Source of the DNA: Pseudomonadota bacterium
Lineage (GTDB): Bacteria > Pseudomonadota > Gammaproteobacteria > Burkholderiales > Rhodocyclaceae
DNA: 64,000 nucleotides
Reading direction: 5' to 3'
Assembly (NCBI GenBank): GCA_018262235.1
Contig: JAGTRY010000006.1
Location: 3,632 to 67,631 of the forward strand
Shown here piece after piece: positions 57,320 through 60,949 of this stretch. Both the position numbers and the translations under genes were made by a program. Under the pieces are notes generated by a model. The model was given only the letters and a program-made list of their open reading frames with translations, did no database searches and was not told the origin of the DNA. The first letter of the stretch is position 1. Each line of letters opens with the position of its first letter.

Positions 57320-58525
57320 ATGAACACGCCCTTGACCGCGACCGCCCCGGTACCTCCCGCCGCGCTGGACATCCTCAGCCCTGCCCTGGTCTTCCTGCTG
57401 GCCTGCGCCACCGGCCTCACCGTCGCCGCGCTGTATTACAACCAGCCGATCCTCGGCATCCTGTCCAGCGAATTCGGCGCTTCGCCCACCGAGATCGGCC
57501 GCATCCCGACCCTTACCCAGCTCGGCTACACCGCCGGCATCCTGCTGCTCGCACCGTTGGGCGACCGTTATGACCGCCGCCGCGTGATCCTCGTCAAGCT
57601 CGTGTTGCTGGCCGTCGGGCTCTTCGCGATGGCACTGACCCAATCGCTGGCCCAGTTGTGCGCAGCCAGCGTGGTGATCGGTGCGGCCGCCTCGGTCGCC
57701 CAGGATTGCGTACCCGCTGCCGCTACCCTGGCGCCGGAGGCACGCCGTGGCAAGATCGTTGGCCACGTCATGATGGGCCTGCTGCTGGGTATCCTGCTCT
57801 CACGCGTGATCAGCGGCAGCGTGGCAGAAGCCTTCGGCTGGCGCACCATGTTTGTCGGTGCAGGCACGCTGGTCGTCGCACTCACCCTCGTGATGCAGCG
57901 CCGCCTGCCGGCTTTTGTGCCCACCACCACACAGGCCTACAGTGCGCTGCTGGGCTCGCTGTTCACCCTGTGGCGCCGCCATTCCGGCCTGCGCCGCGCG
58001 GCGATTGCCCAGGGCTTCCTGTCCGCAGCCTTCAGCGCCTTCTGGTCGACGCTGGCCATGATGCTGCACCAGCCGCCGTTCGGCTTCGGCAGTGCCGTGG
58101 CAGGCGCTTTCGGTCTGGCTGGCGCAGTCGGCGCACTGGCCGCGCCGCTGGCTGGTCACTTCGCAGACCGGCGTGGGCCGGAGCCGGTCACCCGCCTGGG
58201 CGCCGTGCTGGTGTTGCTCAGTTTTGTTGCCTTTGCCATCGCCCCGCACAGTCTGTGGCTGCTGATCGCCGGGACCCTGCTGTTTGATCTGGGCGTGCAG
58301 GCCTCGCTGATTGCACATCAGAGCATCATCTACGGGCTGGAGCCGGCCGCCCGCAGCCGTCTGAATGCCTTGCTCATCGGCGGTATGTTCGCCGGCATGT
58401 CCGCCGGTTCGGCACTGGGGAGTTTTGCCCTGGCCCAGGGTGGCTGGCGCGGGGTCAGTCTGTTTGCAGCCGCCTGCGGACTCGCCGCACTGCTCACCCG
58501 CATCTGGCCAGGACGCCAAGATTGA
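57320..58525 (+). CDS. MFS transporter
   Basis: 401 aa with 12 hydrophobic segments and an MFS loop motif (LAPLGDRYDRRRV). Confidence 0.85.
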   Translation: MNTPLTATAPVPPAALDILSPALVFLLACATGLTVAALYYNQPILGILSSEFGASPTEIGRIPTLTQLGYTAGILLLAPLGDRYDRRRVILVKLVLLAVGLFAMALTQSLAQLCAASVVIGAAASVAQDCVPAAATLAPEARRGKIVGHVMMGLLLGILLSRVISGSVAEAFGWRTMFVGAGTLVVALTLVMQRRLPAFVPTTTQAYSALLGSLFTLWRRHSGLRRAAIAQGFLSAAFSAFWSTLAMMLHQPPFGFGSAVAGAFGLAGAVGALAAPLAGHFADRRGPEPVTRLGAVLVLLSFVAFAIAPHSLWLLIAGTLLFDLGVQASLIAHQSIIYGLEPAARSRLNALLIGGMFAGMSAGSALGSFALAQGGWRGVSLFAAACGLAALLTRIWPGRQD

Positions 58526-58573
58526 CGCGCTTGGCATTGCGACAGACAGGGCTGGCGCGGTACGATACCGGCC

Positions 58574-58621
58574 ATGATCCAACTCACCCCCATCCGTTTG
58601 CCGTCTTGGTGGCGCCGCTGA
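58574..58621 (+). promoter_or_regulatory. Candidate trpL-like leader peptide ORF (MIQLTPIRLPSWWRR) upstream of trpS
   Basis: ATG 58574 to TGA 58619-58621. Tandem TGG TGG at 58607-58612 is followed by CGC CGC TGA. The Trp-codon segment can pair with 58659-58667, which is also one arm of hairpin 58657-58677. Confidence 0.4.
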
Positions 58622-58725
58622 TTCCGCGCGGCACGTGAGCAGTTTTCAAATCTCAGGGGCCGCCAGACTGGTGGCCCTGTGCGTTCCAGCTGGCAGCTCC
58701 TGCTAAATCTTCCGGAGCAGATTGA

Positions 58726-59739
<1,014 letters not shown>

Positions 59740-60235: not shown

Positions 60236-60949
60236 ATGGGCGCACAGTGGAAAGCCAAACACAAGGACATCGCCGCCAACATCAAAGGCAAGGTTTTCGG
60301 CAAACTGGTCAAGGAAATTCTGGTCGCCGCGCGCGGCGGTGCCGATCCGGCGATGAACTCGCGCCTGCGTCTGGCGGTGGAGCAGGCCAAGAAGGCCTCA
60401 ATGCCCAAGGACACACTGGAACGCGCGATCAAGCGCGGCGCCGGCCTCACCGACGAACCGGTCAACTTCGAGCACGTCATCTACGAAGGCTTCGCGCCGC
60501 ATCAGGTGGCGGTAATGGTCGAATGCCTCACCGACAACGTACGCCGCACCGCGCCGGAAATGCGCGTGCTGTTCCGCAAGGGCCAGCTCGGCACCTCGGG
60601 CTCGGTCGCCTGGGATTTTGACTACCTCGGCATGATCGAGGCCGCGCCGCTCAAAGCCGGTGCAGACCCCGAAGAAGCCGCCATCGAAGCCGGCGCACAG
60701 GATCTGGAGCCAGGCGACGAAGCAGGAACGACCCTGTTCTACACCGATCCGACCGAACTGGATCTGGTCAGCAAGGCGCTCGGAACACACGGTTTCAACG
60801 TCCTCTCCGCCAAACTTGGTTACAAGCCCAAGAACCCGATCAGCGCCGCCAGCCTCAGTCCCGAGGCGCTGGAAGAAGTCGAAACCTTCCTTGCTGCGAT
60901 TGACGAGAACGACGACGTGCAGAACGTGTATGTCGCGCTGACGGCTTAG
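60236..60949 (+). CDS. yebC: YebC/PmpR family DNA-binding transcriptional regulator
   Basis: 237 aa starting [28 protein letters not shown], a YebC/PmpR-type N-terminus. SD AGGAG. Confidence 0.9.

Follow-up and report, generated by a model that had tools for sequence, protein, structure and literature searches.

Leader-peptide attenuation is textbook knowledge for the trp operons and for pheST, in which a low level of charged tRNA leads to more synthetase. To our knowledge, few aminoacyl-tRNA synthetase genes of Proteobacteria have a known control, thrS and pheST being the textbook cases. Ribosome-mediated attenuation in Streptomyces trpS was reportedly studied experimentally by Vecchione and Sello in 2010, as the title of their article, cited in PMC4787780, says. 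Here, we analysed a leader located upstream of trpS, the gene of the tryptophan--tRNA ligase (TrpRS), in a stretch of 64,000 nucleotides from a Pseudomonadota bacterium of the Rhodocyclaceae (assembly GCA_018262235.1, contig JAGTRY010000006.1, positions 3,632 to 67,631 of the forward strand). This whole stretch will be hereafter referred to as the window. We consider it quite probable that the window leader is a member of a conserved betaproteobacterial trpS leader family and that it acts as a ribosome-mediated attenuator of the trpL type, sensing charged tRNA-Trp. The comparative evidence is decisive in that the observation is real and lies far above chance.

The pheST attenuator is cited in PMC1262725, where an attenuator of Streptomyces trpS was predicted in 2005. 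In Streptomyces lividans, RNA-seq described trpL2 as leaderless, with hairpins and no U-rich stretch (PMC8079986). For Caulobacter crescentus, ribosome profiling in Fig. 2B of PMC4117421 displays a small translated leader coding sequence (CDS) on the trpS mRNA. A preliminary description of the window, made from its letters, had considered codon-leader attenuation to be unknown for a proteobacterial trpS. In view of the Caulobacter leader CDS in that figure and of the Streptomyces attenuators, this statement is right only in part. For the Betaproteobacteria, we found no description of trpS cis-regulation in the literature; a 2010 survey (Lopatovskaya et al., Mol Biol 44:128) and the article of Vecchione and Sello might contain one. 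The kind of element is known, and the betaproteobacterial family itself is absent from Rfam.

The leader ORF and its conservation

The leader open reading frame (ORF) lies in the 200-nt gap between the gene of an MFS transporter (57320-58525, PF07690) and trpS. As in attenuators of the trpL type, it is short and has tandem regulatory codons, TGG TGG, near its stop. It has the string TGGTGGCGC in common with E. coli trpL; a check of 5069 E. coli genomes confirmed the trpL sequence, which their annotation names the trp operon leader peptide. The ORF, its tandem Trp codons and the common string, from which a trpL-like leader had been proposed in the preliminary description, are all present.

The sample used for comparison consists of at least 80 loci with genes for TrpRS relatives (71-76% identity), to which eight loci were added via exact-protein look-ups. 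The added loci are L081 (a metagenomic locus with a 93% relative), Microvirgula (79% identity to the window TrpRS), Jeongeupia, Paludibacterium, Chitinivorax, Burkholderia vietnamiensis, L088 and L087. The alignment of the trpS upstream regions, which had been proposed as a check on the original idea, bears it out: 58 of the 85 loci sampled have, about 100-125 nt ahead of trpS, an ATG mini-ORF ending in ..WW(RR)stop. By chance, a WW mini-ORF is expected at about 0.2% (13/8500 dinucleotide shuffles; 18/8868 control genomic windows from the same loci). The distance between the ATG and TGGTGG is a multiple of three in every one of the 58 leaders, and the spacer lengths vary freely. The leaders have mostly 15-17 codons. 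Their interior is unconserved, with 53 unique peptides among 63, while WW and 1-2 Arg residues are fixed, as seen in MNFSYPHPVLTWWRR (Massilia), MKPCYATSSFFFTWWRH (Vogesella), MTTALQRTFHWWRRP (Microvirgula), METRPASPNLHRWWRA (Burkholderia) and MIRLTSLRLRSWWRR (L081).

The carriers of the leader include Oxalobacteraceae, relatives of Chromobacterium and of Chitinibacter, and a Burkholderia trpS that is annotated as a second copy. The leader of L088 is of the same kind as that of the Burkholderia locus, and no leader was found at L087, a metagenomic relative. The upstream neighbours differ by lineage (MFS, PPDK regulator, TatD, TGT, divergent monooxygenase) while the leader is constant, which indicates that the element travels with trpS. 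The leader was absent from all Methylophilaceae examined and from some Oxalobacteraceae. In the Methylophilaceae (L001-L004, L012-L016, L022, L037 and L041), an upstream ORF ending in ..PPATIEWE, which we take to be guaA, stops about 40-60 nt before the trpS start, and neither leader, promoter motif nor terminator was found at these loci. Their trpS seems to have a different arrangement.

Homology was also examined at the RNA level. For this purpose, 42 leaders of Oxalobacteraceae, taken from the Trp codons to the terminator, were used to build a covariance model, R1, from which the window was excluded. R1 has its sole match in the 64 kb at 58598-58684, over the full model length, with a score of 35.7 bits and E = 4.6e-8. 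Furthermore, R1 matches L081 (E = 2.7e-7), Microvirgula (8e-7), Chitinivorax (6e-6), Burkholderia (7e-3) and Jeongeupia (1e-2). The leaders of Vogesella, Aquitalea and Silvimonas are too diverged for R1, and they have kept the architecture. The scan with Rfam leader models that had been suggested earlier found neither a leader nor a T-box: 58400-58900 had no such match at E up to 10, the whole window none that reached the gathering score, and nine related loci none at E up to 1. Sub-threshold Rfam matches to microRNA and snoRNA families were taken as chance. Just upstream of the leader promoter of Massilia sp. SR12 (L020:2719-2786), the plant microRNA precursor family MIR8001 matched with E = 1.4e-5 and 44.8 bits, below its gathering score of 90; this is probably a palindromic repeat that is unrelated to the leader.

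The segments that would matter for attenuation have been kept between the window and L081. WWRR and the stop are identical at 15/15 positions (100%), and the spacer from the leader stop to the trpS ATG is 88.5% identical, compared with 71% for trpS third codon positions and 67% for ORF codons 1-11. That the spacer and WWRR are more conserved than synonymous-like positions indicates that purifying selection still acts on the RNA.

The leader ATG is preceded by a promoter-like motif. TTGAC has its first base 35-37 nt ahead of the ATG in 55 of 60 leaders, a hexamer NANNNT ends 6-7 nt before it in 54/60, and a C directly precedes it in 51/60. The upstream genes vary, yet the motif keeps its distance from the ATG. 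In the window, the TTGAC of the family is replaced by the weaker TTGCGA with an 18-nt spacer, and the -10-like position is conserved; the hexamer TACGAT, suggested as a -10 in the preliminary description, has the same geometry as the motif of the relatives. Three overlapping -35-like hexamers are found in 58522-58542 of the window (TTGACG at 58522, TTGGCA at 58531 and TTGCGA at 58537). Compared with other leaders, the stretch from the conserved TTGAC position to the -10 is about 7 bases longer in the window, and L081 has TTGACA with a 19-nt spacer. Because of the extra bases, TTGCGA is given as a candidate -35. With this geometry, transcription would start at or next to the leader ATG and yield a leaderless mRNA, in agreement with a caveat that had already been raised and in parallel to the reported Streptomyces leaders (PMC8079986).

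Some loci carry natural variants of the leader. At L055:2845-2940, from a metagenome-assembled 'Pseudomonadota bacterium' that is Oxalobacteraceae-like, the leader ORF is intact and both Trp codons are CGG CGG; the terminator region is eroded, and R1 still matches with E = 0.002. Leaders with a single Trp codon are found at L018:1372-1463 (..LHWRPR) and L076:2800-2897 (..LIWRRS). Their terminators and U-runs are intact, and they are the top R1 matches (70.6 and 61.4 bits, respectively). By analogy with S. lividans trpL2, this suggests that one Trp codon can suffice. In Burkholderia vietnamiensis (L084, CP053611.1), the leader-bearing TrpRS has 337 aa and its gene sits on a 1.2-Mb replicon, next to genes for a divergent flavin monooxygenase (PF13434-like), RidA and DUF1028. 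In B. lata, a close homologue is named 'Tryptophan--tRNA ligase 2' by its source. The B. vietnamiensis protein may, as in Streptomyces, be an auxiliary and horizontally acquired enzyme.

Alternative pairings of the leader RNA

The layout of the leader RNA is that of the classical 1:2 / 2:3 / 3:4 logic (Table 1), and the mutually exclusive structures that had been proposed ahead of trpS are supported. RNAalifold, run on all 54 leaders, recovers the terminator hairpin only, and the alternative helices were therefore tested one by one. In the window, region 1, which holds the Trp and Arg codons and whose core is made of the Arg codons and the stop, pairs with region 2 in a duplex of -14.6 kcal/mol. 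The pairing has an outer stem, CUCAC with GUGAG, which was overlooked in the preliminary description, as were a hairpin at 58656-58700 that joins the terminator-like arm to the anti-Shine-Dalgarno (anti-SD) segment, and the strong conservation. In Oxalobacteraceae, the outer helix (CACAUC with GAUGUG), in which ORF codons 4-8 extend region 1, covaries; it is 78% paired, with 4 pairs changed on both sides. The GCGG of region 2 is invariant in alignment A1.

When ribosome masks were imposed as constraints on minimum-energy folds of the full-length RNA, the terminator, being more stable, persisted in nearly every state, so that truncated transcripts were needed. The antiterminator was tested in transcripts cut just before the terminator 3' arm, with a footprint mask that reached from -15 to +12, counted from the first base of the codon in the A site; the size of this mask was assumed from established footprint sizes. 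With the mask on the first or the second Trp codon, region 2 pairs with the terminator 5' arm in 20/21 species from 4-5 lineages, and this geometry is also seen in the window. In these 20/21 species, the region 2 segment has its start 3-11 nt beyond the first base of the stop codon, and GCGGC is located at +9 to +15 from this base in the window and in Oxalobacteraceae. With the mask on the stop codon, region 2 lies inside the footprint and the terminator 5' arm is mostly unpaired. In E. coli trpL, about 20 nt separate the first Trp codon from the start of region 2, a spacing like that of the present leader. The 2:3 helices change in sequence across lineages yet stay complementary, for example GCGGCGU/AUGCCGC in Microvirgula and CCCAGGUU/AACCCGGG in Vogesella, and the 2:3 duplex beats shuffles in six lineages, namely Microvirgula, Burkholderia, Vogesella, Chromobacterium and two Massilia groups. 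In Janthinobacterium variants, the ORF continues through region 2 (..WWSRTQRAATSM), and these run-through ORFs fit the same attenuator logic.

Downstream of the terminator stem, a segment H can pair with the hairpin arm and loop to give helix X, or with the region of the trpS Shine-Dalgarno sequence (SD) to give helix S, and both helices can be formed in the window. Hairpin X (58656-58700) has -24.7 kcal/mol and is the most stable local hairpin. S is present in the minimum-energy fold, in line with the anti-SD pairing of GCUCC that had been noticed before; it has 5 bp, while its L081 version has 9 bp. In Oxalobacteraceae, H (GAUCGAGGC or GAUCGGGGC) complements both the terminator arm with its loop (GCCUCGAU) and the trpS start region (CUCGAUG or CCCGAUG). 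Both helices covary there. X is 91.9% paired, versus 26-48% in slid controls, and has 23 compensatory cells versus 7.1 in shuffles, none of 500 shuffles reaching 23. S is 91.5% paired, with 3 of its 6 pairs changed on both sides. X is often the top local hairpin, with -20 to -28 kcal/mol versus -15 to -20 for the terminator (most Oxalobacteraceae, e.g. L015:2815-2985). Since X is the stabler, the terminator would be kinetically favoured and transient in full-length RNA.

The 3:4 hairpin of the window has 10 bp, including 2 G.U pairs, and a loop GAC. It had been described as a 9-bp hairpin of 58657-58665 with 58669-58677, so its presence stands and its extent has been refined. It aligns with the terminator of the relatives, which consists of AACGCCGCC-loop-GGUGGCGUU followed by U5-7. 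The terminator scan calls true terminators in L020 and L082. A run of at least 4 T follows the hairpin in 31/42 Oxalobacteraceae leaders, and the U-tract is broken in 11/42. These numbers were counted from alignment A3, because an automated search for the best hairpin with a U-run kept picking X over the terminator and, while it lent support to X, was unusable for this purpose. The U-run of L081 is only weak.

Table 1 Features of the trpS leader region in the window (all on the + strand).
Feature	Position	Sequence or extent	Partner or remark	Basis
-35-like hexamer (candidate)	58537-58542	TTGCGA	18 nt upstream of TACGAT	
-10-like hexamer	58561-58566	TACGAT	7 nt before leader ATG	same in L081, fits family geometry
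Leader ORF	58574-58621	MIQLTPIRLPSWWRR + stop, 15 codons	ATG 58574, TGA 58619-58621	
Outer region 1:2 stem	58583-58587	CUCAC, ORF codons 4-5	GUGAG 58635-58639	minimum-energy fold
Tandem Trp codons (regulatory codons)	58607-58612	TGG TGG, codons 12-13 of 15		invariant in alignments A1, A2 and A3
Region 1 core	58614-58620	GCCGCUG, Arg codons + stop	58625-58632	minimum-energy fold
Region 2	58625-58639	GCGGC core 58628-58632 + GUGAG	region 1 or GCCGC 58659-58663	masked truncated folds
Terminator-homologous hairpin (regions 3:4)	58656-58678	58656-58665 with 58669-58678		-22.2 kcal/mol
Degenerate U-tract	58679-58687	GUGCGUUCC	no T-run longer than 2	
Segment H	58686-58700	CCAGCUGGCAGCUCC	58656-58671 (hairpin X) or SD via GCUCC 58696-58700	local folds, covariation in Oxalobacteraceae
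trpS Shine-Dalgarno sequence	58714-58718	GGAGC	GCUCC 58696-58700	minimum-energy folds
trpS, regulated gene	58726-59739	tryptophan--tRNA ligase, 337 aa		PF00579, E = 3.6e-56

Proposed mechanism and competing explanations

The proposed mechanism could be described as follows. Transcription would begin at or beside the ATG at 58574, and a ribosome would translate the 15-codon ORF of the leaderless mRNA. When Trp-tRNA is plentiful, the ribosome would reach the stop at 58619, its footprint covering the first part of region 2 (58625-58632); after its release, region 1 would re-pair with region 2 and the hairpin at 58656-58678 would form. In most relatives, this hairpin is an intrinsic terminator. 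When Trp-tRNA is scarce, the ribosome would stall with the TGG at 58607 or that at 58610 in its A site and leave region 2 free to pair with 58659-58663, so that the hairpin would be blocked and trpS expressed. In a second layer, H would have two alternative partners, the hairpin arm with its loop and the ribosome-binding site (RBS) of trpS. With the terminator formed, H would be free to close the RBS, and in the case of antitermination the loop would capture H first. The direction of regulation, like the type of output in the window, is deduced here from sequence.

Several results weigh against this mechanism, or against parts of it, in the window. A consensus promoter scan gave no call in the window or in the relatives, the -10-like hexamers (AACCAT, TACGAT) matching TATAAT at only 3-4 positions, and with the scan silent the promoter assignment is drawn from positional conservation. 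The leader ORF of the window has no SD, so that its translation, which we infer, depends on the leaderless start. The fold of 58560-58730 is not better than shuffles (z = +0.57; 143/200 shuffles as stable or more); the fold that had been recommended earlier turned out to be uninformative in terms of single-sequence stability. Moreover, the 2:3 duplex of the window consists of 5 G-C pairs with -10.9 kcal/mol, against -22.2 for the hairpin, and has z = +0.3 versus shuffles. The terminator scan makes no call at the window hairpin, the tail of which is GUGCGUUCC; the lack of a stem with a U-run had been noticed from the beginning and is confirmed. Finally, an equilibrium calculation gave no difference in the accessibility of the trpS RBS between the terminator and the antiterminator state, and the link between stalling and the RBS would follow from a co-transcriptional argument based on folds of truncated transcripts.

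As the U-tract has decayed, the read-out in the window is more likely to be trpS translation, Rho or pausing than intrinsic termination, which is consistent with an early caveat that the output might be translational or Rho-dependent. The evidence favours such a changed output in the window lineage, and the same may apply to the 11/42 Oxalobacteraceae leaders with broken U-tracts. It is quite possible, if short of probable, that the same sensor acts without any termination in the window lineage, only through trpS translation initiation (SD/anti-SD versus X) or through Rho acting on untranslated RNA. The absent U-run of the window and the weak one of L081 agree with this, as do the pairing of the SD in minimum-energy folds, the rank of X as the most stable local hairpin, the covariation of X and S and the broken U-tracts in Oxalobacteraceae, and Streptomyces trpL2, which was reported with hairpins and without a U-rich stretch (PMC8079986). 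However, RBS accessibility did not differ between the two enforced states, the anti-SD of the window meets competition from a small local hairpin, GGCAG/CUGCU, in each of them, and the S helix of the window has only 5 bp. More tentatively, a two-output attenuator could be imagined, in which a leaderless peptide passes the stall at WW to the terminator and then to the trpS RBS via a three-way complementary set, the control being purely translational or Rho-dependent where the U-tract has decayed; this would make the leader an undescribed, widely conserved RNA family.

The loss of the U-tract and a 2:3 pairing at chance level would also be expected from a decaying relic, inherited from an ancestor with a working attenuator after which regulation was lost here. 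Decay is seen elsewhere, as in L055, with both Trp codons changed to CGG and an eroded terminator, and in the leaders with one Trp codon (L018 and L076), and the leader is missing in some Oxalobacteraceae and in all Methylophilaceae examined. We nevertheless find a relic unlikely, because the spacer and WWRR with the stop are 88.5% and 100% identical to L081, versus 67-71% for synonymous-like positions, and because the window has retained its start codon, frame, stop position, hairpin and anti-SD in intact form.

In the scheme that follows from the preliminary description, the Trp segment itself (58604-58613) would be the antiterminator, or anti-sequestor, by pairing with the 5' arm of the hairpin, and the ribosome would decide by covering it; stalling would then favour the hairpin and lower trpS expression. 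The pairing of this segment with the 5' arm of the hairpin does exist (58606-58613) in the no-ribosome fold of the window, as it does in those of L081, L083, L084, L020, L045 and L035, and the Trp segment, UGGUGGCG, resembles the terminator 3' arm (GGUGGCG) in nearly all leaders. It is probably not the operative antiterminator, however. A ribosome stalled on the Trp codons covers the segment, as does one at the stop, so that the two states would be indistinguishable and the pair could form only on untranslated RNA. The resemblance follows from region 2 having to pair with regions 1 and 3, and less TrpRS under tRNA-Trp shortage would run opposite to all known control of aminoacyl-tRNA synthetases (pheST, T-box trpS). 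Such a scheme is therefore very unlikely; we regard the helix as a by-product of the double pairing of region 2, or as relevant only in untranslated RNA, and conservation together with ribosome geometry points to region 2 (58628-58632) with GCCGC 58659-58663 as the antiterminator instead. That the ORF is there by chance, or that the RNA is an untranslated element such as a protein or tRNA site, is hardly credible: the unremarkable single-sequence fold and the lack of an SD before the ORF would fit, but the ORF occurs in 58/85 loci against 0.2% by chance, the frame is kept in 58/58 while the spacers vary, and no T-box or other Rfam family matched. A chance ORF, a T-box and a terminator of the upstream gene were rejected as candidates; upstream genes differ by lineage while the leader is constant.

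Significance and comparison with known attenuators

Directly after trpS, and overlapping its 3' end, the window has an ORF of the YggL family (50S ribosome-binding protein, PF04320; 59699-60154, + strand), which is followed by a gene of the YebC/TACO1 family (60236-60949). As the listed start of the YggL ORF overlaps trpS, the real start is probably located further downstream. Both trpS and yggL may be co-transcribed and hence share the leader control.

The leaders described here make up a conserved and easily testable cis-regulatory family that has no entry in Rfam, and they offer natural variants for study: leaders with one Trp codon, a leader in which WW has become RR, and others that have or lack the U-tract. 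The WW-to-RR leader of L055 is a ready negative control for the attenuation model. The family suggests that, in Proteobacteria, a regulatory leader peptide can be made by leaderless translation, and both the leaderless start and the coupled RBS switch are features worth testing. The family could account for an inducible response to inhibitors of TrpRS, such as indolmycin, and it might be used as a compact biosensor of tRNA-Trp charging. If the two-output reading were true, the leader would define a new family of cis-regulatory RNAs acting on a housekeeping aminoacyl-tRNA synthetase of Gram-negative bacteria.

Among the known systems, the T-box of Bacillus subtilis trpS also induces trpS when tRNA-Trp is uncharged. 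However, it senses the tRNA directly, without a leader peptide, and the window has no T-box match. The leader CDS in the Caulobacter figure is likewise a small translated CDS before a proteobacterial trpS; it belongs to the Alphaproteobacteria and can be likened to the present leader by position only. The trpS attenuators of Streptomyces (trpS2 / trpRS1; trpL2) have a Trp-codon leader peptide upstream of trpS and are reported to be leaderless. In contrast to the present family, they belong to Actinobacteria, only one Trp is present in the S. lividans peptide (MMTRTCTQLWRAA), and the regulated enzyme is an auxiliary, antibiotic-resistant TrpRS; homology of these leaders to the present family is unlikely. 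The E. coli pheST attenuator (pheM) is a classical leader-peptide attenuator before a proteobacterial aminoacyl-tRNA synthetase gene, and it differs, by its description, in having Phe codons, another synthetase and an unrelated sequence. E. coli trpL (Rfam Trp_leader, RF00513) controls biosynthetic genes and has a 5' untranslated region with an SD and a clean U-run, whereas the window leader lacks the U-run, adds an RBS-sequestering layer and has no RF00513 match at E up to 10. Nevertheless, the two leaders are alike in their 14-15 codon ORF, in TGG TGG followed by CGC with the stop 2-3 codons later, and in the 1:2 / 2:3 / 3:4 logic, with region 2 lying under the ribosome at the stop.

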